Assembly: GCA_964016885.1 (NCBI GenBank)
Contig: OZ024741.1
Location: forward strand, 86,304,001-86,368,000
Origin: Eledone cirrhosa
Taxonomy: Eukaryota
DNA length: 64,000 bases
Direction: 5' to 3'
In this document: positions 1-59,706 of the stretch, one piece after another
Position numbering within the stretch: the stretch's first letter is position 1
Layout of the letters: each line of letters begins with the position of its first letter
Position numbers and translations under genes: made by a program
Notes under the pieces: generated by a model
The model's input: the letters and a program-made list of their open reading frames with translations, nothing else
Databases searched by the model: none
What the model was told of the DNA's origin: nothing

Positions 1-3000
1 CATAAAACTTGCTGGGGTACAGCACCTCTCTCTCCATTCTGATTCTTCTTCCAAAGTGGTATTTGAAAAAAAGAATCAGTTGTTGACCGGAGAGAAAGGT
101 GTCTGACCTCAGCCTTTTCAACCTTGTCCATCATACAACCTCTTTCGCCATAGCAAAAACCGCCTCTCCTTCATTTTTGAAGGAGGGTGGCGGCTTGATC
201 ATGACAATGGACTCGGTGGTCAACTGGATTGGTCCCACCCGCGACAATAGTCTACAGGTCGGTGATGCCCGGGCAGTGTATGAATGCATGCGCGACAGTT
301 TCTTCGTCTCGCACGCACCTCGGACAGATCTTTTTTGCAGGGTCCCTGCCCGGGCGCCTATGTCTGTAGAGCTTGTCTCGAACTGGTAGAGCTCCTCGGT
401 AGCACTGCCAGGCCAGGGACTTTTGGAAGTTGTCCATCGGTCCCTGGCGGAAGGTCCTACCGAACAGGCTGGCCAGTTCGTCTTCCTCTACGCCCAGAGT
501 TTCACCGAGCTCGTCGTCGCACTTGCTGCAGATCAACCCTCTATAGAATGACGAAGTGGAGTCTCCACTGATTGCCGGGTACGCCTGCCAGAGAGCTGTG
601 AGCGCCTGAGCAAATTCGATGTGCCAGTCGCCCATTTTCCTCGGTCTTTGCTTGATCCAGGACTGCAGCTCGGTCAGCGAGACGAGTCGTGGGAAGGCTC
701 GCCTCACGAACGGGGCCCACACCGGTTGTCTGGTGAGGAATACGTAGAGATGCCGAAGCCTGAGTGCGTGTTTGCGCATCGTCAGCCACGGCATCCCCAG
801 CCTTCCGTTGGAAGGGCGTTGGCAGCAGATGGATCTTCTCACCATAGGAGCCCGCCTCTTCCAAAGGAATTGGAAGAGCGCGCGCTCCATTTTGGCGAGT
901 GTTTGGGCTGGACAAGGCACGACGTTCAAGCGGTAGTAGATGGCGGACGCTATAAAAGTGTTCGCCACCTCCGCTCGACCTTTCAAGGATAGTTTGCACT
1001 CAGCCCACTTCTGGGTGAGTGCAAACACCTTGGCCGACACCTCGTTCCAGTTCTTCTCCACCTGGAGGTCCGGACCAAACCAGACCCCGAGCAGCTTTAC
1101 TGGTCGTTCCGTCCAGCGTCCGACGGCGCCATCGGAAGGCATTGGTCTGCCTCTCCATGATCCGAGTTGCAAACCCATGGACTTGTTCAGCTTCGCTCCT
1201 GTGAACCTTTCGTATTCCTTCAGTAAGGTGCCGACTTCCTCGATTTGCGAGGCGCTCGACACCATTACTGTCACGCCACTTTCCGCAGTCCCGGTTCCAG
1301 AGGGACGCCCTGCAATAGCTCCAACTTTCGCAGTAGTGGCTCGAGAGTCAATATACAGAAGGGAGGAGAGAGGGCATCCCTGTTGAATGGATCGCGCGAT
1401 ATGGAACGGCTCTGAAAGGTAGCCGTTCACCTTAACCCTTGAGTAGATGTTGCTGTTATGCATTGCAGCAATCCAGCCCCTGAACACGGGTCCGAAGCCT
1501 GCCGCCTTGAGCACCGCATCCAGGTAACGATGGTTAGCCCTATCGAAAGCCTTAGACTGATCCAAGTTGATCAGGGCCCCACTGAAGCCGGGTTTACACC
1601 CTACCCTCTCTATGATGTATCGCATGAGGTGGAGGTTGTCGTGTATGGACCTGGTCGGGATTGCGCATCTCTGCGCTTCTCCCACCAGGTTCCCGACGAC
1701 AAGCGCCAGCCTCTTTGCCAACACCTTGGCCAAAATCTGTAACTCTGTGTTTAGCAGAGTTATGGGTCGGAAGTTGCCTATGTCATCCCCCTTATTCTCG
1801 TCCTTCCTGACTAGTGTGACCACGCCCCCGGTTACAGAACTGGGAATTCTCCCGTTCTGTTGCCAGTTGCAGTAGACCGCTTCCAGGAGACCGGAGAATA
1901 AGTCCGGCATTACTACGTAAAATTCGTAGGGTAGACCGTTGAGACCTGGAGATTTGCGTTTGCCGCATTGGCTCAACACGTCCTCTATCTCAGCGGCTGA
2001 AATCGGCTTTTCGCAGAACTTTGCCTCGCTGTCCGAGAGTCGCGATAGGCCGTCGAGGTATGGACCGAAATCCATAGCCCCTCCTGGGGCGCCACCCTGC
2101 CTGAACAGCTGAGCAAAGTGTCGCTGAAAGGCCGCACACATCTGCTTCGGCTCACGTATCACGCGTCCGTTTTGGTCCTTCAAAGACCGAATCGTGGACT
2201 TGCTGCCACTTTTTGCCTCCGTCACCCGGGCCCAGCTAACAGCTTTGGCTCCCTCGTTTCCCAGAGCACGTATTTTGCTTCCGATAACGCAGCCCTCATG
2301 CTTTGCGTCGAAGAACTGGTCCAAGGCCGTTCTCGTTGCTAGCACGCTGGCTACGTTGCCACTTCTAATTGCCTCTTCTACTTTATCTACCAGTTCTTTC
2401 TCGGTTCTATTTCTATCTAATGCTAATTCTTTACTAAAAACTAACGAGTCTAATCTAACTGCCCTCTTGAGAGAGTACCACCATCTGTTGTTGACAATGG
2501 CCCCTGTCAAGTGCTGTTTAACTAAAGTGCTAATCCGTCTACTGTAGGCTTTGCATGTCGGTAACGACAAGTTCAGCTTCCAGTAGCTGGGTCCTTGTCT
2601 ATGGGTTCTATCAAGGTTGACCATGCAGGTCACTAGTTTGTGATCTGAATAGGCAACCATGAACATTTGTGGACAGCTTAACATGCCCCTATCCTTATTT
2701 CTAACTAGAACCCTATCTAGGTACGATCTAGATGTTCTGCTGCGATTAGTCCACGTCCACAGTGGCACAGTCGGAAAATCTAATCGATATCTATCGGCCA
2801 GGTCAAATCGGCCGATTAACTGTTTGAGGATGTTACACCCCCCACCTTTATCAGGACATGCTCCCACATAGTCCCAACGTGCATCTAGGAATCCATTCCA
2901 GTCCCCCACTAAAAGCAAGGAGCGGGACGTTGCCAGAAAAGTCTCTAAACGTTTGAAGAAGTCTGGCCGCGGTGTCCCGGATGGGGCATATGCGGCCACC

Positions 3001-4475
3001 AGCCTGAAGGCTCCACCTTCACTACCGTCAACGTCTAGGACCACCAGTCGATCCTCCGGGTCCAGATGTACCATCTGTGTTACGAGGCACAGGTGTTTCC
3101 GCAGCAAAACGCAACCCCGACCCCACCCCCGGCTGACAGAGAGATGCATAGATCTCAAAGTCATCGAAGATGGGGGCCAGCTGTCGCTCACTGTGGATCC
3201 TGGACTCGCAAATAGCTACTACATCCATACTGTGCGACCTGAGGTCGTTTAAGAGTTTGCCCTGTTTCCAGGGCATCCCCAGGCCGCGTACATCCACACA
3301 CCCAACTCTTATATTGGCCATGTTGGTTCTGAAAAGTTAAAAGAGAAGAAAACACTCACCTCTTCGTCTCCCGGGGATCAGGCCGCACGGTTTCCATGGG
3401 GGTGTTAAAGGAGTTGTCTGGGCGGCTGGTGGTTTCCGGCGGGGTGGGGATGTCTGGGGTGAGGGTGGGGAAAGTTTTTAAAAGGACGCGGTTAATGGGT
3501 TTAACACAAGTATTACCCACGTCCTTAGGAAAGTTTTCCTTTAAAGACTTATAGGTGTCCGTAGGCACCCTAATCATCTTTAAATTAGGTTTGTCTACAC
3601 AGTTCGAAAAAGTTTTCCCTTCAGTTTTCACCGAAGGGTCGTTGGAGATGACCTCCATTAAAGTTTTGTTTTTACTGTTTATGTATGTGTAATGTTCTTG
3701 TTGTGTTGCGGTGGTTTTTGTCTGTTGTTCTTGTGGGAGCTTTCGTTTTGTTGTAGGTGTTTGTGTTTGGATTGATGTCGTGGTTTTGTTTTCGGGACGG
3801 GGGGTTTTTGTTTGTAATGTTTGTGTTGTTTGTGTTGGTGGTTGTATATTTGTAGTGATGTTTGTTGTTTTTTTGTTCTTATGGTGTCTTTTCTTCTTTC
3901 TTTTCGAATGGAGAGGCTCTCCCTCATCATCACTTGGTGATGATGTGGGAGCCTCGTCCGTTGTGGTGTCTGTGTTATTTGGAAGGGGTATGTTTTAGGG
4001 AGCTGTTGTTTGTGGGTGCTTTTGCAGTGGTTTTAGGTGGAGTGGGGTTGGGTGGGACTGTGCTTGCAGGTTGGTTTGTTGTTCTTATTTTGGTTGTTTG
4101 TGTGTTGTTGTGGTGGTGGTGGTGGCTGTGGTTGTGTTGTTGTTTTGGGTTTTGGCAGTAGTGCCTCTTTTTTTTTTAGTTAACTGAGGACAGTAAGCCT
4201 TCAGGTGACCACTGCTTAAACAGTGGTAACATGAAGGCCGCCTACCCTCAACAGAAATGTTTATGTGTGAAATTCCATCCAGAGGCACACGTTGGGGTAT
4301 TTTAGCTATCCGTTCTGGCCTCATTTGGACCAGAACTTCCATGCTTGTACCATTGAATGTGCCTCTGGAGGACTTTCCCACCGAAATGATGGTGTCTTCG
4401 ACGAAATCGATGAAGCCAGTTAGAATCCACCAGACGTTTACATTTGGTGCAATGTTCAAAATTTTTATTTTTTGA
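1..4475 (-). mobile_element. Tx1/L1-clade LINE, copy 1: ORF1 remnant plus ORF2 (APE endonuclease, RT, Cys-rich C-terminus); runs off the window start; inactivated
   Basis: ORF2 starts at ATG 3321 (MANIRVG...NDLRS...AICESRI) and frameshifts into the 979-aa ORF, which has VGDWN, SYLDR, SDH, KSPG, FRPITLLN, LDQSKAFDR, QGCPLS and CPRC...H...C. The ORF1 remnant at 4085-4459 has the zinc knuckle CYHCLSSGHLKAYC, followed by a low-complexity linker. Confidence 0.92.
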
Positions 4476-30508: not shown

Positions 30509-31544
30509 GTAAGTTTATTTCTTATTTTTTTCCTTGTGAAGGCATGTAGCCTTGTGATTAGGGTCTTGGACTCACAACTATAAGATCATGGATTTGATTC
30601 ATGGACCAAGCTGTGCATTATGTTCTTGAGTATGACACTTCATTTCATGTTAGGATCAGGACATCATTATTAAAACTCCCCAAAAAATTTCTATGAGATA
30701 CAAACCTCATAGGAAACCAGCTAAACCCCTCCTATCTCTCCAATTAGAAGTTGACAGAACTATGAAATTTTAATTTCTTTTGTAGTTTTTAGTTTCTTTA
30801 TTGCAAATAATCAGAAAGTTTTTGCAGATTACATCAACAAACACCAGGAAAAAAAAATCTGAATAAAAAATATTAATAGTTAAAATCGTGCAAATTAATA
30901 AGGAAGCACTTGTTACATTCATGTGATCTTTACAAATATGTATAAACTTAACACTTTATGGAATGTATGAGGGCCGAGATCTCTGGCGTTATGCAGTAAT
31001 ATAGAAAACACAACCTCCCCTGTGCACAGGTTGAAGCATACATCGAGTATTCACCTCCCACGCCCAACCACCCAACCCTCACCCACATCCCTAGATCTAC
31101 CTCCCCAACCCAAGTCTCCAGCCCATACTATAAAGTGGTCGTTTTGGTGCCACAACAAAAAACGTCCAGCTCACACTGTAAAGTGGTCCTGTCGGTGTCA
31201 CGGCAAAAAGCACCCAGCTCACACTGTAAAGTGGTTGTGTGGATGTCATGGCAAAACGTACCCAGTACACACTTTAAATGTGGTTGGCATTAGGAAGGGC
31301 ATCCAGTAGAAACCAAACCGGAATCAGTTCTGTATGAGCAAGACATGGTCACCTGATTTGACTTGTCTCACAACGGGACAACTTATTTAACCCATGCTGT
31401 TGTGGAAAAATGGATGTTAAACAGTGATGATGATGATGATATACATATTGTTTTAAGATATATTCCTTTTGTTCATAGCAAGACTGAATTCTTTAACATA
31501 CAATGGCTTCACTATATAAGTAGATACAGAGATAGTATTATGCA

Positions 31545-31614
31545 TGACATTTGTACATTTTCTATGTACTATACATACACCTTTGATGAGTTGTAGTGCC
31601 CCTGAGCACTGTAC
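31545..31614 (+). mobile_element. 3'-terminal 70 bp of the CR1 family at 38267-40367, lacking its last ~9 nt and tail
   Basis: Close match to 40272-40342 (..TATGTACTATACATACAC.TTTGATGAGTTGTAGTGC.CCTGAGCACTGTAC). Confidence 0.85.
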
Positions 31615-33484
31615 CGTTTTCAGGGGTTGGATCGCTGCGATGTACAGCGACATCTGCTCAGTTGTGAGGGTGAATGGTCACCTGTCGCAGCCGTTCGGCA
31701 TCATGCACTCGGTCCACCAGGGTCGTCCTCTCTCGTCCGTCTTGTACGTATTCGCTCTCAAGCCGTTACTGTACAAACTGGGGGCGATGAGGGGCATCCC
31801 ACGCGAACTAGGATGCGGGAAATCCGAGTCGGCTTACGCCGACAACGTCACCGTGGTGGTGTCTAGCACCAGACACGTCCAGATGCTCGGCACCACTCTC
31901 AAGGAATACGAAGCGGTGACAGGAGCATAGATAAACCAGGAAAAGTCGGTAGGCTTGCAGCTCGGCACCTGGAGAGGCAAGCCCATGCCGCCCGACAGCG
32001 TCGTGGGGCGTTTGACGGGGGACCGGTTAAATTGTTCAGGGTCTGGTTCGGACCGGACTTCCAGATGGAGAAAAACTGGAGTGAGGTGACGAGCAAGGTG
32101 GCCTCCCTCACCCAGAAATGGGCCGAGAGGAAGCTGTCCCTGAAAGGCCGGGTGGAAGTGGCGAATGTGTACTTTGCATCCGTCATCTGCTACTGCCTCA
32201 CCATCATCCCTTGCCCCGGCCCAACTCTCACCAAAATGGAGCGCCTCCTCTTCCGCTTTTTAAAGGGACGCGCTCCCATGGTCAGATGATCCATCTGCTG
32301 TCAACACCAGTTGGGTGGAGGACTGGGCATGCCATGGCTGAAGATGCGCAAACATGCGCTGAGGCTGCGACATCTCTGGTGCTTCCTTGACGGTGAACAG
32401 GTGTGGTCGCCGTTCGCCAGGCACGTTTTCCCACAGCTCGTCTCCTTGACAGAGCTGCAGTCCTGGGTCAGGAAAATACCGAGGGATAGCGCTTGGAAAC
32501 TGGAATGTCTCCAGGCGCTCACTGCCCTCTGCCAGCTGGGCACCAGTATCAGTGGAACATCCACCTAGGCATTCTATAGAGGACTAGTGGAGGGGAAGAG
32601 CGACGACGTTCTCGGAGAGATCCTGGGCGTCGAAGAAGATCAGCTGTTTGCTCTCTTCCGGAGAACTTTCAGCCCAGGGCCTATGGATAACTTCCAAAAA
32701 TCCCTGGTCTGGCAGTGCTACTGGGGAGCGTTGCCGGTTCGAGATAAGCCCTACAGGCACGGAAGTGCCGTCAGCCGAGATGCGCGCAGAGCGACGAAAC
32801 CGTCGTGCACGCACTCGTTCAGTGCCCGAGCATTGCTGACTTGTTGAGCTATGTCGAACAGTTGCTGTTGAGTGTAGGACTGATCCAGTTATTGACTGAG
32901 TCCATTGTGCAGATGGTCTCGCCGTCTTCCTTCGAGGAGGAAGGGCAGGCGGTTTTCATCTGCCTGGTGGTCATGGCGAAAGAGATTGTGTGGTGGACAA
33001 AGTTGAAAGGGTTAAAGACAGACACTTTCCTCTTTGGCGAATCCCAATTAACTTTTTCAAGTTTCACTTGAAGAGGAAAATCAGGGTGGAGAGGGAAGTG
33101 CTGCCTTCTAGCAAGTTTGTTGAAAGATGGGTGAATGTAGCGAGAATAGTCCGAGTGAACGGGACCGCTCTGAATATACGCCTGTAGTTTGAGAAATGGA
33201 AAAATTGAGAGAGGGCGCTTGCCCTGGTGGTCAGGGTGGTCGTGGTCTTTTGTGTGGTTTTCGCCACGAGTCACCCTCGGAGGTTTCCCCCCTATTGCAG
33301 AATTTTTCATTGTTTCAATTTTCATTTTTATTGTTTATATATATATATATATATATGTTTCTGTCTTTTTTTTTCTTTTCTTATATAAATAATAAAAATC
33401 CTTACATGCACAAAACCCACATCGTACCGTCCTGTGCCGTCTGTAATGTTTTTCTTGATGTCAGCCCTTGTGGCCAATAAAGAA
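31615..33484 (+). mobile_element. Tx1/L1-clade LINE, copy A: 5'-truncated within RT; frameshifts and stops
   Basis: GWIAAMYS, QGRPLS, SAYADN, WFGPD, LSLKGR and LGMPWL. The 3' UTR ends AATAAAGAA, followed by (ATT)9. Confidence 0.92.
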
Positions 33485-33511
33485 ATTATTATTATTATTA
33501 TTATTATTATT

Positions 33512-33720
33512 CTTTGAGTCTCAGTCATTGATGTTAGTTAACTGGAAAGTTTGTTGAAATGAATATCAAGCCACTACCTGCAGCCTCAGATATTCAGGAC
33601 GTATCGGAGGGTTCTTGCTGTTCCCAGCAAGCATGCCTTTTGAAGCGTTCCAAAAAGCGTGGCAGGGCCAATTTTCTTTAACCATCCCTGGAAACTTTTT
33701 GAGATAGTACCTAGTGCGCC
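33512..33720 (-). mobile_element. 5'-truncated Dong/R4-clade (restriction-like endonuclease) non-LTR element inserted in (TAA)n
   Basis: The minus strand reads GALGTISKSFQGWLKKIGPATLFGTLQKACLLGTARTLRYVLNI* (33720-33586), then a ~75-nt 3' UTR; TAA repeats lie on both sides. Missed by the ORF track. Confidence 0.8.
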
Positions 33721-33739
33721 TATTATTATAATTATTATT

Positions 33740-36700
33740 CAACGACCTCCGGTCGCTGGAAATGGATGTGATTGCCGTAAGCGAGACCAGAATTTCCGAC
33801 GCGCGCACTAGCCCCCATTTTCGACGACTATCGGATCTTCACATCTGTTAGCAGGCCGGGAATGGGGGGTGGGGTGGCAGTGCTGTTTAGGAAAGGACTG
33901 GATCTCGAGGTAAGGTCGATCTTCCGGGACCCGGACGGTAAGTTGGTGGTCTTGGATGTGAGCAGTAGCGAAGGTGGTGCCTTTAGACTGCTGGCCGTCT
34001 ACGCCCCTACAGGGGCCGGATGACCTGACTTCTTTAGGCGCCTGGAGACCTTTCTGGGTACGTCTCGCCCTTTACTGTTAGCGGGGGACTGGAATGGCAT
34101 CTTAGACGCACGCTGGGATTGTGTGAGAGTAGCCGATAGGAGCGGGGGGTGCAAAAGCCTCAAGCACCTACTCAGCCAGTTCCAACTGTCTGACAGGTAT
34201 CGACTAGATTTCCCCAATGTGCAAGTATACATGGACCAACCGAATGGGGTCATCTAGATCGTATATAGACAGAATCTTCATTAGGAAAATAGATAGAAAT
34301 AGTGTGGGCTGTCCACTTTTTAAAACGGTCGCCTATTCAGATCACAAATTTGTGATCTGTACGGTCGACCTAAATAAAACGCGTAGGTTAGGACCGGGTT
34401 ACTGGAAGCTGAACATGTCATTTCCGGCACGTAAGGCTTACAGGGACCGAGTCAACAAGTTAGTTAAGCAAAAGTTGACAGGGGGGATCATCAACAACAG
34501 ATGGTGGGGGGGCTCTCAAAAGAGAGATTAGAGTAACTTCGATAGAGTTCAGCAAAGAACTAGCGTTATAGAAAGGAGGGGGAGCTGGTAGATAAGTTAG
34601 ACGAGGCTATTTGTAGTGGCATCGCAACTGACGTGTAGCGGCGAGAATGGCATTAGACCATTTCTTCAATGCCAAACACGAAGGTTGCATTGTCAGAGCT
34701 AAGGCACGTGCGCTGAGAAACGAGGGAGCTAAAGCTGTTCAATGGACCCGTGTGTCGGAGGCGCAGCGTCGTAATAAAACCACAATTCGGTCTTTGGCGG
34801 ACCGAGACGGATACGAGATAAGCGATTCCAAGCGGATGTGTGAGGCCTTTCGCCAGCACTTTGTTCGGTTGTTCAGGGAGAGTGGCGAGTCAGAGAGAGA
34901 ATAGCGGATTTCAGTCCCTACCTTGACGGCTTGCCGCGTATCTCGACGGTCGACGCTGAGCGCTGCGAAAGGCCGATTACTTCAGCCAAAATTCAGGACG
35001 CCCTTGTCGGCTGCATGAGGCGCAAGTCACCCGGTTTGGATGGCCTGCCCTACGAGCTTTACGTAAATATGCCAGACTTGTTCTCCGAACTCCTTGAAGC
35101 ACTCTACTGTAACTGGCAGCAGAATGGGAGTATTCCCAGTTCTGTGAGCAGGGGAGTGGTGACGCTGATAAGGAAAGACGAGAACAAGAGGGATACATTA
35201 GACAACTTCAGGCCCATAACTCTGCTCAACACAGAGTTTAAAATTTTGGCCAAGGTGTTAGCAAAGAGATTGGCGCTTGTTGTCGAGGATTTGGTTGGGG
35301 AGGCGCAAACTTGCGCAATCCCAGCCAGATCCATACACGACAATCTCCACCTCATGCGATACATCATAGAGAGGGTAGGGTGTAAACCTGGCTTCGGTGG
35401 GGCACTGATCAATCGAAAGCATTCGATAGGGTCGACCATCGGTATCTGGAGTTTGTCCTCAAAGCAGCTGGCTTCAGCCCTGTCTTTAGAAGCTGGATCG
35501 TTGCAATGCACAGCGGCACACGCTCGGTGGTCAAGGTTAATGGCCACCTCTCGGAACCATTTTGGCTCTCCCGATCGGTCCGTCAAGGGTGCCCTCTCTC
35601 TTCCCTTCTGTACGTATTGACTCTCGAGCCTTTACTGCGGAAGCTGGAGCTGTTGCAGGGCATCCCGCTCGAACTGGGACGTGGAAAGGCGGTGTCGGCT
35701 TATGCGGACGACATCACCGTGATGGTGTCGAACACCTCAGAAATCGAGGTGGTCGACACCTTATTGAAGGAATATGAAAGGTTGACAGGAGCCAAACTTA
35801 ACCCGGAAAAGTCGGTGAGCTTGCAGCTCGGAACCTGGAGAGGCAAGCCCATGCCGTCCAACAGCGTCGTGGGGCGCTGGACGGACGGACCAGTAAAGTT
35901 GCTCGGGGTTTGGTTCGGACCAGACCTCCAGGTGGAAAAGAATTGGGACGAGGTAACGAGCAGAGTAGCCAGTCTCACCCAAATATGGGCTGGGAGGAAA
36001 CTATCACTGAAAGGTGGCGAATGCGTACATCGCGTCCGTCATCTACTACCGCCTAACCGTTGTGCCTTGCCCCCGTCCGCGCCTCGTCAAGTTGGAACGG
36101 CTCCTCTTCAAATTCTTGTGGAGGAGACAAGTTCCGTTGGTGAGGCGGTCCATCTGCTGCCAGCACCCTCTACACAGAGGGCTGGGCATGCCGTGGCTAA
36201 TGATGGGCAGACATGCGTTGAGGCTGCGACATCTCCAGATATTCTGCCTCAATGGTGAACAGGTGTGGTCGCCGTTTATCAGACGGGCCTTTCCGCAGCT
36301 CATTTCTTTGACTGAGCTGCAGTCCTGGGTCAAGAAGAGACCGAGACTGGGTGACTGGCACCTGGAATGTTGCCAGGCACTCACTGCCCTCTACCAAGCG
36401 GGCAATGCGATCAGTGGAACTTCCACTCTCGAGTTCTATAGAGGATTAGTGGTGGGCAAGTGCGATGACGCACTCGGAGAAGCTTTGGGCCTTGACGAAG
36501 TCGAACTGACCAGTCTGTACCGGAAGACTTTTGAGCCGGGGACGATGGACAATTTCCAGAAATCCCTCGCTTGGCAGTGCTACCGGGGGGCACTGCCGGT
36601 TCGGGATAAAATCTACAGGCACGGAAGTGCTGTCAGACGGACCTGCCCAAGATGCGCACAGAATGACGAAACCGTTCTGCACGCACTTGTCCAATGTCCG

Positions 36701-37324
36701 TGCATTACTGACTTGTGGAGTTATGTCGAACAGCTACTGTCGCGTGTGGAACGAATCCGGCTATCGGCCGAGTCCATAGGGAAGATCGAGCCGCCACCTT
36801 CCTTAGGTCAGGAAGAGCAGGACATTTTCCTCTGTCTGGTGGCAGTTGCGAAAGAGATTATATGGTGGACCAGGTTGAAAGGACTAAAGACAGACACTTT
36901 TCTCTTCGGCCAATCCCTCATCAACTTCTTCAATTTTCACCTGGAAAGGAGGGTGAGGGTGGAGAGAGAAGTGCTGCCCCCCAGTACATTTGCTAAAAGG
37001 TGGTTGAATGTGGTGAGAATGGCTCGTGTGAATGGGCCTACTCTGACCATGCGCCTATAGGCTGGCTAACTTGAGGAGAGGGGTGCTCTCCTGGGTGCCC
37101 TAGAAGCGCAGGGTGGTTCAGGATTGGTGGGGTACCCGAATCACCCCAGGGTTGTCCACCCCCTATCGGGGAATTTATTTTGTTATATTTATGCATAGTT
37201 TATTTTATATTTTTATATTTTCATTGTTAAATTAGTCTTGCCATTGTGCACTTTTACTCGACCTTATTGTAAACCCCCACTGTCCCTGTCTTTGTATTGT
37301 CCCCTTGTGGCTAATAAATGAAAT
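33740..37324 (+). mobile_element. Tx1/L1-clade LINE, copy B: nearly complete ORF2 with several frameshifts and stops
   Basis: Begins NDLRSLEMDVIAVSETRI, then AGDWN, SYIDR, YSDH, KSPGLDG, FRPITLLN, RQGCPLS, AYADDIT and CPRC..ETVLHALVQC. Ends AATAAATGAAAT followed by C(ATT)9. Confidence 0.93.
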
Positions 37325-38266
37325 CATTATTATTATTATTATTATTATTATTACTTTCATTAGTTTTATGACAGTTTTGAAAGTGTGTGGTCGAGTTGGG
37401 TTAGGGTATTGGATTAAGGTTTTAAGTTCAATTTCTTGACTCATTGGCACGCTGTGTTTTTGGAATGTATGTAGTTGCATATATATACAAATTAATGTAT
37501 GTGTCAACATATACACACAGACTAATGTATGTAGCTACATATATGCACTGACTAAGATATGTAGCTGCATATATGCACAGACTGATGCATGTAACTGCAT
37601 ATATATATAGAGAAATTGAGAACATATCAGAGATTTGCCATTTTTGTTGTTTTTCATTTTATTTTTTTCATTTTATTAAAATCTGGCACAACAAAAGATT
37701 TATATGTAATTACCATTATTCTAGAAGTTGTTTTATAACGATATAAATAATACAATGGTGAGTACTTTAAAAAATTTGAAGTTTTCCACTATATTTATCA
37801 GTGTATTAAGATTGCTTAATCCTTTTAATACGGAACTGTCCATTTATTTAAATTAAAATCTTCCAACATAATTTTATATAAAAACATTTATTAAGTTACT
37901 ATCATTAGAAATATCACAAAAGAGTTGAAGCAATGTAAAGTTAATCGCTTACTCTATTCCACTCTTATTTTCATTCGCTCACTTTTTCTTTGCCAGTCAG
38001 TACAGGGTTATAAACACCTCATCCTTCCTTGTTTGTTGTCTGCTTGGCTGTCTCCAACTTCTTCACTGTGACAGTAAACAAAAGCTCTAAGCTCATTATT
38101 ATATGTGATGAATTTACATTGTATTTATTTGTATCATTCAACAGTGATGACAATATATGACTGAATGAATTGTTACAAGAGTCAGAGAAACATTAAGAGA
38201 TTTCAAAATAAAATTGTTCTAAATTGTAGCTATGCCCATAAATGATTTGTTTCCTTCATCTAGTAT

Positions 38267-40367
38267 GGATAGCGTGTGCAGCATCAGTGCCACGTAAGCA
38301 GGAAAAAAAAACCTACCCCAAAAGTGCAATTTGGGAAACTTCAGCGGTCCAACTTGCCAGGAAAGAACGTTGGAACGCTGAACGGGAACATAAACTGCAT
38401 AAATCAGATGCCAACAGAAAAAAGCGGAATAAATCTTCTAACCATCTCAAGCAAGTGACAAAGAAGGCAGTGCTTGAATTTGAACAGTGCATAGCAACCA
38501 ATCCTGACAGTAAGGTGTTCTGGAAATATGTTCATTCAAAGCAGAGACCTCACTCTCCAGTTGGTCCTCTTCGCAATCCCCACACAAGCCAGGTCACTGA
38601 CGATCCCAAAGAATGCGCAGAACTCATTGCTGAGTGCTATGCAAGTATTTTTACTGTCAAAAACCAGAATGTACCATCTCCACCATCTCTAACATCAAAT
38701 TCCATAACAACTATGGCATTTACACCTGCAATGCTGCGACGTCACGTTAAGAATAAGCGCAACTATGCCTCCCCTGGTCTTGATGGTGTTACATACCTGC
38801 TTCTCAAACGTGGCGGGTATTTCCTTTTGCGCCAGCTTTCTTTCTTCTTTCAATACTGTCTCAACAATGGTGCTACTCCGGAGCAGTGGAAAACTGCCAG
38901 TGTCATTCCCCTGTTCAAAAAGGGCAATCGTATGTCACCTGTCAACTATCGTCCAGTCAGTCTTACTAGCTGTATGGCCAAACTGATGGAATCCTGTGTC
39001 AGAGAAACACTTTGGGACTTCTGGAGCTCTCACACCGGCCCTCACAGTTTGGATTTATCCCTAACTCCAGCTGCTGTGATCAGCTTATCGAGTTCCTTGA
39101 AGACATCACCCGGATCACTGACAGCAGCTCATGGGTGGATGTTGTTTACCTTGACTTTGCTAGGACTTTTAATTATGTGCCACACAAAAGACTTATGGCA
39201 AAACTCTCTGCAATGAGTGTGAGGGATGATCTTTTCGACTGGTTGAAATCCTTCATTCTCAGCCGAAAAGAGGTAGTCACGGTACTAGGAGAGCATTCTT
39301 CACCATATGAGATGTCATCTGGTGTACCACAGAGATCTGTTCTTGGTCCCGTTTTGTTTGTGGCATATATTAATGACATAGATGCCAACTTACAGAATGC
39401 CACGGTACTGAAATATGCAGATGACATCAAGCTGGACCTTGAAATCAAAACGACTGATCCTGAAATCTACAACTCTTTCCTACAATCAGACCTGGACACA
39501 ATGCAGCAAGGGATCACAGACTGGCAACTGAAGCTGGCTGTGGATAAGTGTACCACCATGCATTTTGGGAGGAAAAATCCAGTGTCCACATACTCCCTCC
39601 ACAACACTGATATCAAGAAGTCCTCTTGTGAACGTGACCTGGGCATTACTGTCAGCAGCGATTTGCGTTGGACAAAGCACATCTCTAAGATTGTCAAGAA
39701 GGCTGAGGGTGTCTTGGCATCACTCAGCAAGACCTTTGTTAGCCGCTCTCCAGCCATCTATTTAAAACTGTATACAGCTATGGTACGACCACACTTTGAA
39801 TTCGCATCATCAGTCTGGAACCCCTATCTTGCTCAGAACATTGACCGCCTGGAAACTGTTCAGAGATGTGCAACCAAGCGCATACCCTCCATCAGACACC
39901 TACCATACGCTGAACGCCTTGCTTCCCTGGGCATGGATTCATTGAAGCTCCGACGTCTGGCAATGGACTTGGTGAAAACCCACAAAGTTATTAACCATTT
40001 CGCCAACAACAACCCTGAGCACCTTTTTTATCTCCATGTGTTTAACACACATGGACATGCCTACAAAATCAGAAAACAGCACAGCTCCCATGGCTTTCGT
40101 AAACATTTTTTCACGCTCGGAGTTGCTGAAGCATGGAACAAACTGCCTGCGTCAGTTGTTAGCTGCCGAGACACTCATGCTTCCTGAAATACGCCAAAAC
40201 TACACCTGATGTACCCCTTCCATACACATGGACACATGTGTATATCATGACTCATGCACTGTTCATTTTCCTGACATTTGTGCATTACCCTATGTACTAT
40301 ACATACACTTTTGATGAGTTGTAGTGCACCTGAGCACTGTACACAATATTTCATTATTATTATTATA
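38267..40367 (+). mobile_element. CR1-clade LINE: 5'-truncated ORF2 with one frameshift near 39030; (ATT)n tail
   Basis: SPGLDG, PLFKKG, NYRPVSLTS, QFGF, YLDF, GVPQRSVLGP, YADD, ERDLG and HFFT..VAEAWNKLP. Candidate TSD TAGTAT at 38261-38266 and 40368-40373. Confidence 0.92.
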
Positions 40368-54070: not shown

Positions 54071-55323
54071 GACAAATGAAAATATGTAAGTAATGGAGGC
54101 AGCAGGGAGGACAAGGTTGTTGTGATATTTGGATAACAATTAATGGTGAAATTTGATATAATTACCCACTCTGACATAGCATTTTCAAGTGAAGAACATG
54201 AATGGTTTTGCAGAATTGTGAAGTAGAAACCATATTCCACAGAATGGGCCACAATGTAATCTATATGCTCAATAAAAATTACTTGTACAAACTGCTTTTC
54301 CAGTCATAATTTATTCCAACCAAACAAATGACAGTGGAAAGGGTATCACAAACCTGAATGTCTTTCTATCTCTGATATTTGAACACGAATTAATGTTAAA
54401 CAGGAAGTATATAATATAAAATCATGAATTTGGGTACTCCCCAGATATGGTTTCAGAATAAAGTCAAGCTGTGTCCTTCATATGGCAGGCTATTGTTATC
54501 CTACATTTGCATTGTTCAATATTAAAGGATAGCCATTAAACGATTTCCACATTTTGGAATGTACTGTAAAAACTGAAAGCTGTCATAAATAGAGATTTAT
54601 TTCTTCCAAATGGTATGAAATAATGTAACCCAAATGAAATCACTAGTTATTGTTAGTTTTACAGCATTGTTTATGAATATATTTATTGTACAGAACATTA
54701 TAAAGTTAACTATAAATAAATGTTTATTTTCATTTATACATCAAGAATGGGAAACAATGTTGGACATGTTTAAACCTTACTCAGATTTGCTGAAAATGTT
54801 TGAATGTCTCATTAAATTAGGCAATATTTCACTTTAATTGACATTGGAAAAGAGAATTTAGAAATTAAAAGCTGTTGTTCATATAAATCCCTTAACATTT
54901 TTTATACCAAACTAGATCTGTTTATTTTACAGTGTTTATATTTATCTAAATACCTTCCATCATAATTCTATATCAGAACCGTTAAGTTGTTCCAAACTCC
55001 AGCTTAATAATAAAAAAAATAGTTATATTACTAAATCCCTTCAAATTATTGTATATTCTCAACATATGAAAAGCTATGTCTTTCATTAAGTCCGGTCTAC
55101 CATAACGGAATGAAGAACAAAGAAAATATTTCCAAAATGGCGAAGCAACTTCTACCTCACAATGGTTAGCATAAGTCTCGCGTTGTTATCGTGTGACTTC
55201 AATTAATTGTTGAAGCAAGGGAGATCATTCTCAAGAATTTAGGATGAAGATAGATAATTATATGCTAGCACGCGCACATATTACTTAAGCTGATGTATGC
55301 ATATAATCCAAATATTGTGTGTG

Positions 55324-55362
<39 letters not shown>

Positions 55363-55372
55363 GTTGTAATAG

Positions 55373-55474
55373 AATGAAAACGAAATTTCATTTCTCACTC
55401 TTAGTACGGCACTTACTTAAATGTAAGTATGTATGTATACGTACATACATATATGTATACAGACGTACAGTAGC

Positions 55475-55529
<55 letters not shown>

Positions 55530-56193
55530 CAGGTACACATACATATATGTACGTATCAGTTTAGCGGACGTTTATTATAACGCCCGCTTTGTCTGTTTGT
55601 AAACAAGCGGACAGCCTGAATTTATGTCGAAAGTATATACTTTCGAACGTTCAACCATCTGGCAGAAGGGTATACGGTGCTGATGATAGCTAAGAAGCTT
55701 GAAACTAGTACATCGTTCCTGTGTCAGTGGCGTTATAATAAACATCCGCTAAACTGATACGTACATATATGTATGTGTACCTGTATGTATATATATATAT
55801 GCATGCTACTGTACGTCTGTATACATATATGTATGTACGTATACATATATATATATGTATGTGTGTGTATGTGTATGATAATAATATGGAAAACGAAGAA
55901 TCAGTGATGCATCAAAACATTTATTAACGTATGACAATTGTTTCTCCGGCGAACAGTTCGAGATAAGATCTATTTGTGGATCAAACATGACTGGATTCGC
56001 AAGTTCCAGTGATACGTCTAGCGACTTCGAAGCAAATCCTCTTTGCCGGACAAACAATTGTAATACGTTAATAAATTGTGTTTCAATGCATCACTGATTC
56101 TTCGTTTTCCATATTATTATTATACTCTGCTCTGAAGGAGCATAGAGTGCTCAATCGGCATACCACCTATGGACGCATCGAAGCAACCTTACT

Positions 56194-56263
<70 letters not shown>

Positions 56264-56380
56264 GGAAAAAAAATGAAACGAAATTTCATTTCCCACTCTT
56301 AGTACTGCTGTTACTTAAATATAAGTATGTACACGTACATACATATATGTATACAGACGTACAGTAGTATGTATATATAT
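55373..56380 (+). mobile_element. Structured, hammerhead-containing, terminally redundant element (retrozyme-like or Penelope pLTR-like) embedded in (TA)n
   Basis: Direct repeat 55373-~55480 / 56272-~56375; inverted repeats 55433-55584 / 55729-55846 and 55878-55953 / 56042-56120; the hammerhead lies in the first loop. Confidence 0.6.
55667..55720 (+). ncRNA. Type I (minimal) hammerhead ribozyme
   Basis: Stem I ACGGUG (55674-79) pairs with CAUCGU (55711-16) and extends past a UAU bulge by AGGG/UCCU. Core CUGAUGA at 55680-86. Stem II is AGCU-AAGA-AGCU with a U.U closing pair. GAAA at 55701-04, palindromic mini stem III ACUAGU, and cleavage triplet GUA (cut after 55710). Confidence 0.8.
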
Positions 56381-58370
56381 ATACATACATACATGCGCAC
56401 ATATATGTACGTGTACATACTTATATATATATATATTATATGCATATAATCATTTTCACCATTCTTGCATGGGTTGAACAGGTTATTAAAGGCCAAGTCA
56501 ATACTTAATTGAAGCTATTGCCTTCTTAGATAGATTCGTGAACCAGACTTCAATTCATTCCGCTTTAACTTTTTTTCTTTTTTTCTTCTTATAATTAGAT
56601 GTCTTTTCTAATGCCAGTCACTTTACAGAATGCACTGGAGGAATTTTATTTTGTCAATATTAATGCTAAAATACTGCGGAAATAAAAATTACTCTGGGCT
56701 AATATACTAGAGTTATTACAGAGTTTGTGATTTATTCATAGTTCTGCACAGCCATTAAGATGAGAGGGAGAGGTTGCATGTTTGGTGGGGCATAGAGGAG
56801 TACTCAGCATCATAAAAGTAGTAACTTCAACATTCCCTGTAATACGAACCTAACAGTCCTGTTTAGATTTATGTACTTGTATATGGTATATGTGTATGTA
56901 TTCGTATATGTACACACTATAAACTTTTGGTTCTCCGTGGTGGCCACAGTGGAGTTAGTTATCTCCCTTCATTCTAAATTCATGAGAATCACCTCCCCTG
57001 AATTGAATACATGAAACAATTTGCGTGTGTGTGTATGTATGTATATATGTATATATAGTTTTGTTTTTTCACATTCATATATGCGGTATTACCAACCATA
57101 TTTAGATGTGATTAAAGGATTAAAGTGAAAGCTTTTAAATACTAATTGCTGGCCAATAGCAGCATATAAGAATCATCATCATCATCACCATCATTGTTTA
57201 ATTACCGTTTTCTCTGCTAATAAAGTTATGACATGTCATCACAGACCGGCCAGTACTCTAGGTGGTCTGGGAGCCTACTCTCTACTGAGTGTATTTTATC
57301 ATAGCACCAACACCAGGGAAGTTGTCATGTATTAGCATAGCTGAAAAGCCTTGCCAACACTGTTTGATAGGTTTTCTACAGCTAGCTCCGTCATAACACC
57401 TACCATTTTACAGGAGCATACAGGATAAAAGTTTATTGTGTGTGGTTCATCAACTTTAAGGAAGTAGTCATGTCTATGGCATGACTGAAGAGACCTCCAG
57501 ACGTGTACTGAGTATGTTTATCATGTCAATCATCAACACTAGAGGGGTTATCATGCTCCTAATAGATTATCAATTTAAGCACACAATCTCTGCATTCACG
57601 CTTAGAAGGGATCTTAGAAAACTGAGATATTCTAAAATCTAACATTTCAAAATATTTCAGGCAAATATAATATTCAAAATACAGAAAGATGTAATGGATG
57701 ACCGAGCGAATGTAAAGTAGAACTTCAGTTACATGCATACAGTTATAATGTATACAGTCAATGTTACATGATTTGGTGAATAGAATTAGTGCATACATTT
57801 GAATAAGCTGATGGTGTATATAACTTAAATAAGCCGAATTCTCAAATTAATAACTATTAGTCTGGTCTCTTCCTATTCTCATTGTTCAGGGTCAGTGACC
57901 ATGGACAATTGCACAAATGCTCAGCTATTTGATGCTGTATGTTCATGATTCTTATTAGGAAAAATATGACATTGGTGGGTCCTGAATCCACAAGCTGGCT
58001 ACCAAGCTGCAGCGCACCGATCTACATTACAAGGATGAACCCTTTGGCCACCTTAAAGCTTATTACCAATATGAATGAGTCACCTCTACCTGAGTTTTGC
58101 AGTCAGTTATCCTTCCCCTAGACAGATTTCTAACCACGATTAACAAGCTCTATCTACTGTTTTTATTATTATTATTCAGTATTGGTAAAGCAGCAGACAC
58201 CATGCTTTACTGTATAGTTATGGCCCTTTGCGTTCTGAGTTCAAATGCCCTTCCCAATGCCTATATATATGTGTATATATATACGTCTAAACCCATGCTA
58301 GCATGGAAGATAGACGTTAAACGATGATGATTATGTGTGTGTGTATGTGTATATATATATATATATATAT

Positions 58371-58925
58371 GCAATAAAGTTTTGTGTCAAAAACGCTGCA
58401 GAAACCTATGAAATGATCAAAACTGCTTACCGACTAACTTTCATGAGCTAAGCACCTGTTTTCTGTCGGACCAAGAGAGTGCCTAGAAGAAACATTCTGA
58501 CAACCCAAGAAAGCCAGGCAAAGCAAGTCGACTGGGAAGTTCATGATCTTATTTTTTGACAGCAAGGGCATCTAGATCAACTGGGTCCCCCGCGGCCAGA
58601 CAGTCAACAAAGAGTACTATGTAATTCAGAAAGCGATATTGTCGCAAGAGGCCAAAGCTCTTCAAGTCTGGTCAGTGGCACCTGCACCAGGACAATGTTT
58701 CCTGCCACAAATCTATCCTGGTGACCAGCTACTTGGCCATTATAGGAATCAATCCTCTATACAGTCCAGACTTAGCCACATGTGACTTCTGGATGTTTCT
58801 GAAGCTGAAGGAGAAGTTCAGGGGTATCCGCTTTGAGGATGTGGAGGAGTTGGGGGTCGTGACAAGCACATTGGACACCTTCACTTTGGAGGATTACAAG
58901 GGGCCCTTCCAGAAGTGGCTGGAGT
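58371..58925 (+). pseudogene. Mariner-type transposase remnant, internally deleted, no TIRs, flanked by (TA)n
   Basis: AIKFCVK.AAETYEMIKTAY, FFDSKGI, WVPRGQTVNKEYY, WHLHQDN and YSPDLATCDFWMFLKLK. Confidence 0.85.
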
Positions 58926-58937
58926 GTGGGTGTGGCG

Positions 58938-58977
<40 letters not shown>

Positions 58978-59706
58978 CTTAGCCCACACTGTGAAGTGGG
59001 CGTGTAGGTGTCATGATAGAAAGCACCCAGCACACACTGTCAATGTGATTGGCATTGGGAAGGCCATCCAGCCATACAAAACCAGCCAGAAACACTCTTA
59101 TATGAGCGAGATACAGTCACCTGACCCAACTTGCCTCTAAGTGGGACAAACCTGTCTAACCCATGCTAGCGTGGAAGATAGACGTTAATCGATGATGATG
59201 ATGATGATTATATATATATATATAATTGATGGAAGCTACGGTGTAGGCAGACGCAGAAAAACCTGGGACGATTTGATAAATTGCGACCTTACACACTTAC
59301 ACCTCTCTAAGACAATGTCACTGGACCGAGATCTTTGGCACTACACTATTATAGAAGACCCCACTTGCCTAAGTACAAAGCGAAACCTACAGTCAGTAGG
59401 CACCTCTTAACCAAAAATACACCCCCATCTACACCACCCCTTTCGATGTAGAGTTATGTTGGTACCACAACATCTAGTCCTAAATAAATGAGGTCGTGTA
59501 GGTATCACGACAAAAAAAAACACACAGTCCACGCTGTAATGTGGCCGTGTAGGTAACACGGTAAAAACCTCCCAGTCCACACTGTAAACGTGGTTGGTGT
59601 TAGGAAGGGCAGAAAGCCCTATATGAGCAAGACAACCAATCTTGCCTCAAGTGGGACAATTCCCGTCTAAACCCATGCTAGCATGGAAGATAGATGTTAA
59701 ACGATG

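Follow-up and report, generated by a model that had tools for sequence, protein, structure and literature searches.

The stretch at positions 55373..56380 of the window (the whole 64,000-nt piece of Eledone cirrhosa DNA that was analysed) is, by sequence comparison, composed of three separate insertions that share TA tracts within one TA microsatellite. Our overall reading, to which we assign a probability of about 0.8, is that this TA hot spot received three independent inverted insertions, two of which belong to a non-LTR retrozyme likely copied by the reverse transcriptase (RT)-endonuclease of a Hydra-clade Penelope-like element (PLE). Insertion 1 is a rearranged A1 copy, A1 being one subfamily of a tandem type I hammerhead repeat; insertion 2 is the 3' end of a decayed Hydra-clade PLE, named here family B, and insertion 3 is a fragment of subfamily A2 of the hammerhead repeat. 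This repeat (family A, about 430-500 nt per unit) would represent a non-LTR retrozyme family that is new, likely mobilised by a PLE; it is abundant and young, and its marks of PLE integration are unusually clear. The locus is laid out as follows.

55324..55360, no strand: target microsatellite, a (TA)n tract that bounds the A1 insertion on its outer side; A1 copies end in TA at the same monomer position
55361..55626, minus strand: A1 inverted arm, running backwards from monomer ~283-287, the main 3' end, to ~60; 95% to a natural A1 array
55627..55728, plus strand: A1 forward arm, part 1, spanning the cut site between monomer ~362 and ~19; identical to many copies (100% over 101 nt)
55729..55851, plus strand: second part of the A1 forward arm, beyond an 83-nt deletion; its end, near monomer ~213, is in TA
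55873..56041, minus strand: family B inverted arm, starting at the short end; second type I hammerhead from ~56017 to 55927
56042..56196, plus strand: family B forward arm with a ~75-nt tail; pairs with the inverted arm as hairpin 2
56194..56258, no strand: (CA)n(TA)n tract common to family B and the A2 fragment, which meet tail-to-tail
56259..56400, minus strand: A2 fragment, running backwards from monomer ~284, the main 3' end, to ~142; its 105-bp repeat is 102/105 to A2
56401..56438, plus strand: A2 short opposite arm, monomer ~204-225, ending in TA (path map)

On the path map, the inverted A1 arm holds the left copy of a 105-bp repeat together with the internal TA tract of the unit, and the forward arm at 55729..55851 pairs with it to give hairpin 1. 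With at most one mismatch allowed, the junction of the A1 inversion (55626/55627) occurs once in the 3-Gb genome, and so does the junction of the 83-nt deletion, which is private to this copy. The ribozyme region itself is multi-copy, but its other copies continue otherwise, in head-to-tail arrays where the sequence of 55361-55626 follows the ribozyme in the opposite orientation. The A2 fragment contains the right copy of the 105-bp repeat and lacks the ribozyme; with its short opposite arm it is a complete miniature inverted insertion. The adjacency of family A, a TA tract and family B was found a second time, independently, at locus L260. We infer that the A1 copy is a one-ribozyme dead-end product of joining two cDNAs at their truncated ends; only one intact core is present in the window, and therefore no unit could be released from it by double cleavage.

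A first-pass annotation had proposed that the same stretch may be one 899-bp monomer of a circular RNA resembling viroids, whose cDNA copy slightly exceeds one unit. The 105-nt repeat spaced 899 nt apart, the very stable fold and the single hammerhead all speak for such a monomer. The recurrence of the 105 nt from 55373 at 56272 is indeed real, with 93 of 100 aligned positions identical, but it is not a terminal redundancy and the two copies do not come from one template: the left one matches A1 at 105/105 positions and A2 at 92/100, whereas the right one matches A2 at 102/105 and is 100% identical to other A2 copies. In place of an 899-bp period, natural units measured from cut site to cut site (n = 98) have a median of 500 nt in A1 (n = 48) and 434 nt in A2 (n = 50), a good part of the difference lying in the TA tract inside the unit. 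The ribozyme repeat proved multi-copy and tandem in the genome, but both A1 junctions of the 899-bp layout are single-copy. Moreover, none of 19 other family B loci matched the A ribozyme segment (the TA-rich part of the unit was matched in nine), and family B continues into a PLE reading frame. The monomer model, together with the over-unit cDNA and the 0.85-0.9-kb circle derived from it, is thus refuted at the DNA level, and we give it next to no credence.

Several simpler observations of that annotation were borne out. The stretch is strongly foldable (-441 kcal/mol for 55373-56271, z of -29 against 20 shuffles), has a higher CpG observed/expected ratio (1.5) than its flanks (0.27 and 0.40), and carries no credible ORF, since frames above 40 aa are mostly microsatellite translations and the longest is 68 aa. 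The class proposed, a hammerhead retrozyme likely mobilised by a Penelope-type RT, also agrees with the insertion geometry and with the retrozyme features that can be tested in DNA. The two long hairpins exist, with arms complementary at 116/118 and 71/76 positions (gaps aside), but all three modules of the window have the form of inverted integration into TA tracts, and the hairpins, like the (UA)n arms, are explained by it; the second hairpin belongs to a different, coding PLE. A stem with G·U pairs, cited in favour of plus-strand polarity, sits in the arm that is antisense for family A, and its 3' side (CAG) was found in 0 of 42 A1 units scored, CGG being present in 40. More generally, stacked inverted insertions of PLE type can give rise to long hairpins and to seeming terminal repeats in animal genomes rich in TA.

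The hammerhead of family A was correctly placed by the annotation, including its predicted cut at 55710/55711. It is a type I ribozyme at 55674-55716 on the plus strand, in which helix I (ACGGUG/CAUCGU) encloses the core CUGAUGA (55680-55686), followed by helix II and GAAA. Helix II (AGCU/AGCU) stands on a U·U mismatch at its base, helix III is a single pair closed by the palindrome CUAG (A-CUAG-U), and the cleavage triplet is GUA; the predicted ribozyme therefore combines two weak features, the mismatch and the one-pair helix III. Rfam gave no match in the window at gathering thresholds, and in E-value mode it returned TA-driven miRNA noise and a sub-threshold HH9 match of 18.1 bits against a gathering score of 52. 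A1 and A2 ribozymes differ only in N7, loop II and one G·U/U·G pair. Among 144 instances of the 43-nt ribozyme the only widely variable positions are N7, one base of loop II and pair 2.3/1.3, although exact core patterns served to find many of the loci, which inflates conservation within subfamilies (A2 was initially detected by its 3' end). Pair 2.3/1.3 swaps G·U for U·G, being GT in 84, TG in 58 and AT in 6 of 157 cases. A pattern for hammerheads that share this helix III but have a shorter helix II gave 74 matches, which were set aside because on inspection they were mostly deletion variants of family A. From the palindromic helix III of family A, whose computed self-duplex energy is -6.8 kcal/mol, cleavage that depends on dimers is predicted (PMC4209133).

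In the 3.0-Gb assembly searched (1796 contigs), exact 31-nt cores number 479 for A1 and 12,756 for A2, more than 13,000 in total, and reversed-pattern controls gave 0. At least two intact cores on one strand occur in 21 of 141 contained insertions; the copy in the window has one. Two natural units have a GC content of 34% and 38%, below the 45% taken as the retrozyme limit, and the circular folds of two natural monomers have 71-72% of their bases paired, with z of -10 to -11 against 30 shuffles. For covariation, the majority letters of one subfamily were read onto the fold of the other, with 81 of 98 units used and 17 outside the length filter. Two-sided changes that keep a pair numbered 6 and 7 against 1.2 and 1.4 expected (0/2000 shuffles), and broken pairs 8 and 13 against 24 and 27 expected from random placement, both figures reflecting a single contrast between two subfamilies under a null that ignores the clustering of substitutions. 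The covarying pairs include G·U/U·G swaps, which are a signature of RNA. Family A is thus under selection as RNA, with a predicted whole-monomer fold that includes compensatory changes. In this predicted fold helix I is extended by three further stems, so that the ends of a released monomer would stay held together. As for expression, matches in three runs presumed to be RNA were limited to about 35 nt of the TA-rich part and so are uninformative, and run X9, of unspecified kind, contains both subfamilies in pieces. Two candidate source loci were observed: an A1 array of more than 40 kb with higher-order periodicity (G000:C2:60568000-60610000, L125-L129), and a duplicated cluster (C4:351.9-352.3 Mb, L311-L314) in which an array of more than 10 A2 units is joined to the 3' UTR of a PLE.

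The geometry of integration was studied in 141 distinct, fully contained insertions. The loci are best matches or first positions on two contigs with intact motifs, and hence a non-random sample; 19 family B loci (L032-L050), clusters at most 120 nt from a locus edge or shorter than 150 nt, and duplicates were left out. Seventy-two insertions consist of two inverted arms pointing outward (-/+), 63 of a single arm, and 6 are more complex. Outer 3' ends concentrate near monomer position ~287 (83/215) and ~225 (70/215), and (TA)n adjoins 155 of the 215. The inverted insertions combine ends 225 and 287 in 30 cases and 195 and 287 in 10; 287 occurs twice in one, 225 twice in none, and in the remaining 31 of 72 an end lies elsewhere. 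End mapping skips low-complexity words, which makes the classes '195' and 'TA tract' imprecise. Inner ends and junctions are spread along the entire monomer length. In the genome as a whole, one variant of A2 terminates at the main site into TA 4,065 times and continues through it 5,077 times. An inverted 5'-truncated copy, often with a tail at one end, is described as a PLE signature in PMC8557442, and PMC11167929 explains this geometry by RT starting at two internal sites, both strands being cut and extended. The same asymmetry is present in the coding elements of this genome: one long and one short end were found in 15 of 17 two-strand copies of family B (47 loci examined), and of 6 fetched long-ORF copies of intact Hydra PLEs, 4 carry a tail end on one strand and a short end on the other. 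The insertion pattern of the retrozyme thus matches the PLE signature, and the repeat was likely copied around the genome by Penelope-like retrotransposons.

The pieces might instead be TA-inserting MITEs or Helitron-like DNA elements with the ribozyme as a passenger, given their terminal inverted arms, TA flanks, internal microsatellite and tandem arrays. The first-pass annotation had named unrelated TA-inserting MITEs with fixed terminal inverted repeats (TIRs) as the competing outcome, and half of this was found: the pieces are separate insertions, but they are not MITEs of that kind. Their arms are asymmetric (225 versus 287) and their scattered inner junctions define no fixed symmetric TIRs; furthermore, the covariation includes G·U/U·G swaps, which point to RNA, and coding PLEs of the same genome carry the matching geometry. 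We therefore consider the DNA-element explanation very improbable and retain copying by a PLE.

Two PLE families of this genome were compared with the retrozyme. Family B (window 55873-56196; L257-L276, L305, L308) is older, with 76-88% identity among full-length best matches. Upstream of it lie a non-coding, TG/TA-rich 3' UTR of about 1.5 kb and then remnants of RT-thumb and GIY-YIG coding sequence. Its type I hammerhead has a palindromic helix III and a branched insert of about 65 nt in helix II, and the full motif is present in 16 of 29 other B loci; in the window the core is broken, and an ACUGGA...UCCAGU stem that had been taken as part of the structured RNA is a place where the window departs from the family B sequence and disrupts the family B core CUGAGGA. 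The second family, a young Hydra-clade PLE, has uninterrupted frames of 808-818 aa (L297-L301, e.g., G000:C3:238977321-238979744), a type I hammerhead with palindromic helix III in its pLTR, a tail of about 90 nt and TA targeting. Its ~800-aa RT-EN ORFs show, in translation, a C-terminal EN, DKT, a CxCX5C linker, CxxC and CxH, DKT being seen only in this intact family and not in the family B remnants. By the motifs listed in PMC8557442, family B and the intact ORFs would both fall into the Hydra clade. A 426-aa PLE query gave 86,673 first-look candidates and 98 scored matches; Pfam found no significant match for the 808-aa ORF and one weak RVT_1 match among the PLE fragments.

The expected linkage to Penelope coding sequence was thus confirmed for family B, whose upstream part reaches it, but no pLTR homology was detected for the retrozyme: in BLAST of family A against the pLTRs of the two PLE families, the matches listed were neighbouring A insertions or TA-rich tracts. 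The PLE partner is therefore assigned by insertion geometry only, and other PLE clades with fragments in the genome may also be candidates. Fragments of further PLE-like RT families lie beside some retrozyme copies (L072:1725-2903, L076:2445-2984, L084, L064), and further hammerhead-bearing repeats flank TA tracts, e.g., at L041, L302 and L310. TA-free PLE-retrozyme junctions (L082 and the C4 cluster L279/L280/L291) were considered as proof of template switching, which they do not demonstrate; at L082 the two elements meet by their tails, and the C4 copies stem from the duplication of one locus and differ in their junctions. A tRNA or SINE origin of family A or B was likewise dismissed, as ARAGORN found none in 13 loci and the B-box-like GGTTCGATCC of family B sits within the helix II insert of its ribozyme. 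The hexamer AGAGTG (A1 monomer ~246-251) lies 23-28 nt downstream of the short end in the retrozyme, family B and the active PLE alike; paired in a helix of the retrozyme folds, these six bases are a possible RT-recognition mark.

The nature of the template is constrained by the positions of 5' ends. Only 6 of 227 fall near the cut site, against 8.2 expected, while 152 of 227 arms run across an intact site; 88 are longer than one unit and 19 longer than two. The usual template is therefore not a cleaved linear monomer, which leaves a circle or an uncut multimer. At polymorphic sites, mismatch within the same arm, between opposite arms and between different insertions amounts to 2.7%, 6.9% and 20% for A1 and 7.2%, 11.4% and 35% for A2, with similar figures when CpG sites are omitted. 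Of the 64 insertions with several arms, 6 combine A1 with A2, and there are clear differences between some arms (L112, L184). Both a circle and a homogeneous uncut multimer explain the read-through and this haplotype homogeneity. Rare variants are mostly not common to the units (11 shared versus 79 not, for A1 private variants), as expected from later mutation, and they give no positive sign of a circle.

We consider a circular RNA template possible at slightly less than even odds. The other explanation keeps the same family and PLE partner and takes the template to be uncut linear multimer RNA transcribed from homogeneous arrays, with little cleavage and no involvement of circles; its chances, too, are in our view a little short of one half. 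Long arrays indeed exist, e.g., at C2:60.57-60.61 Mb, and the ribozyme architecture is weak. According to PMC11167929, hammerhead cleavage is dispensable in the PLE PAc and uncut RNA is its main template, and in bioRxiv 10.64898/2026.07.22.740005, 8 of 9 Xenopus retrozyme dimers were without cleavage in vitro. Yet an array template is not favoured by the comparison of units between loci, where ordered unit-to-unit differences recurred in 0 of 10 discordant sets (a test of low power), nor by the conservation of core and whole-monomer fold with compensatory changes. Moreover, the retrozymes of mussel, coral and axolotl accumulate as circles, as reported in PMC7229834.

Returning to the PLE-copied retrozyme with a circular template, its cycle might run as follows. 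The arrays would be transcribed as multimers, and the weak palindromic helix III would let two ribozymes cleave as a dimer, releasing monomers whose ends, held by the long helix I, would likely be ligated into circles. The PLE endonuclease would cut both strands of a (TA)n tract, and RT would start internally, near monomer ~287 for one strand and near ~225 for its opposite, in most cases with a single RNA haplotype serving both, running past the cut site for 0.1 to several units. Joining of the two cDNAs at their truncated ends would leave an inverted repeat with tails outward and a ~60-nt tail on one side. We tentatively suggest, as something we would bet against rather than for, that the insertions are a record of rolling-circle reverse transcription, in which a dimeric Hydra PLE enzyme primes the two cut strands of a TA tract at two offset positions on a single circular RNA of ~450 nt and travels around it, the PLE being parasitised through RNA structure alone. 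If true, the homogeneity of the tandems, the overlap of the inverted arms and the presence of a tail on one side would all follow from this one process; the retrozyme would parasitise PLEs without pLTR homology, and the whole circle would be under selection.

Various aspects of family A resemble the animal non-LTR retrozymes of coral, mussel and axolotl described by Cervera and de la Peña (2020; PMC7229834). These are non-coding, with GC below 45% (34-38% in family A), occur as dimers to long arrays in thousands of copies, carry one type I hammerhead per unit in a highly self-paired predicted circle, and co-exist with PLEs. The two weak features of the ribozyme are known separately from the same source, the U·U at the base of helix II in HHR_Amex2 and the one-pair helix III with a palindromic tetraloop in HHR_Amex1. 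The monomer of 430-500 nt is longer than the 170-400 nt given there, and lies within the 51-972 bp range of bioRxiv 10.64898/2026.07.22.740005. Unlike the retrozymes of PMC7229834, family A has a variable (TA)n inside the unit. Its insertions into (TA)n also have two fixed ends as well as arms in inverted orientation, a feature that we did not find described for retrozymes in the open literature searched. Family A thus has the DNA-testable features of a non-LTR retrozyme, and its self-cleavage and expression are predicted.

The proposal that tandem hammerhead repeats rely on PLE machinery has been made for Xenopus and other vertebrate retrozymes (Li, Clavereau, Pollet 2026). In vertebrates the link consists of co-occurrence and pLTR homology, whereas for family A it consists of integration geometry, with no pLTR homology detected. 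Hydra-clade PLEs (Craig et al. 2021, PMC8557442) share with family A the (TA)n targets, canonical hammerheads, partial tandems and the inverted 5'-truncated copy with a tail at one end, family A itself being without an ORF. Tails measure about 60 nt in family A, 75 nt in family B and 90 nt in the active PLE, compared with 30-40 bp quoted for PLEs. In PAc Poseidon of Anolis, studied in vitro by Frangieh et al. (2024; PMC11167929), two internal RT starts downstream of the hammerhead define the tail, and both strands of AT-rich targets are cut and extended, as we propose for family A. PAc, in contrast, is an autonomous element whose start site lacks homology to the DNA that is cut; both start sites of family A carry TA/TAT, and short pairing with the target is therefore possible.

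In the open literature, a scope that excludes Repbase and most subscription papers, we found no description of family A or of PLE-type inverted arms and tails on a retrozyme; supplements of PMC8557442, PMC7229834 or the preprint could list the family. The movement of animal retrozymes has so far been argued from co-occurrence and homology. In family A the signature of PLE integration is visible on the retrozyme itself, with young copies numbering in the thousands and intact ~800-aa Hydra ORFs alongside. With the in vitro PLE assay published in PMC11167929, action of a PLE in trans on a retrozyme could be tested, as could the choice between a circle and an uncut multimer.

Some minor observations concern the monomer and the surroundings of the locus. 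In both subfamilies a ATGCAAAT octamer stands upstream of a TATA-like motif (A1 monomer ~325-372, missing from the copy in the window); the pair could be a snRNA-type promoter or just part of a predicted hairpin. The layout may parallel that of newt satellite 2, a parallel that a literature search did not confirm. A 13-nt direct repeat (55296-55308 and 56439-56451), possibly a target duplication, flanks the whole composite; 15 nt separate its left copy from the TA tract, and the flank on that side occurs only once in the genome, with no empty site to compare. Elsewhere the window has frames at 255-3215 (minus strand, 987 aa) and, on the plus strand, at 31520-37057, 38242-40184 and 58625-59137. 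It presumably contains LINE-type endonuclease/RT frames and a mariner-like transposase fragment.
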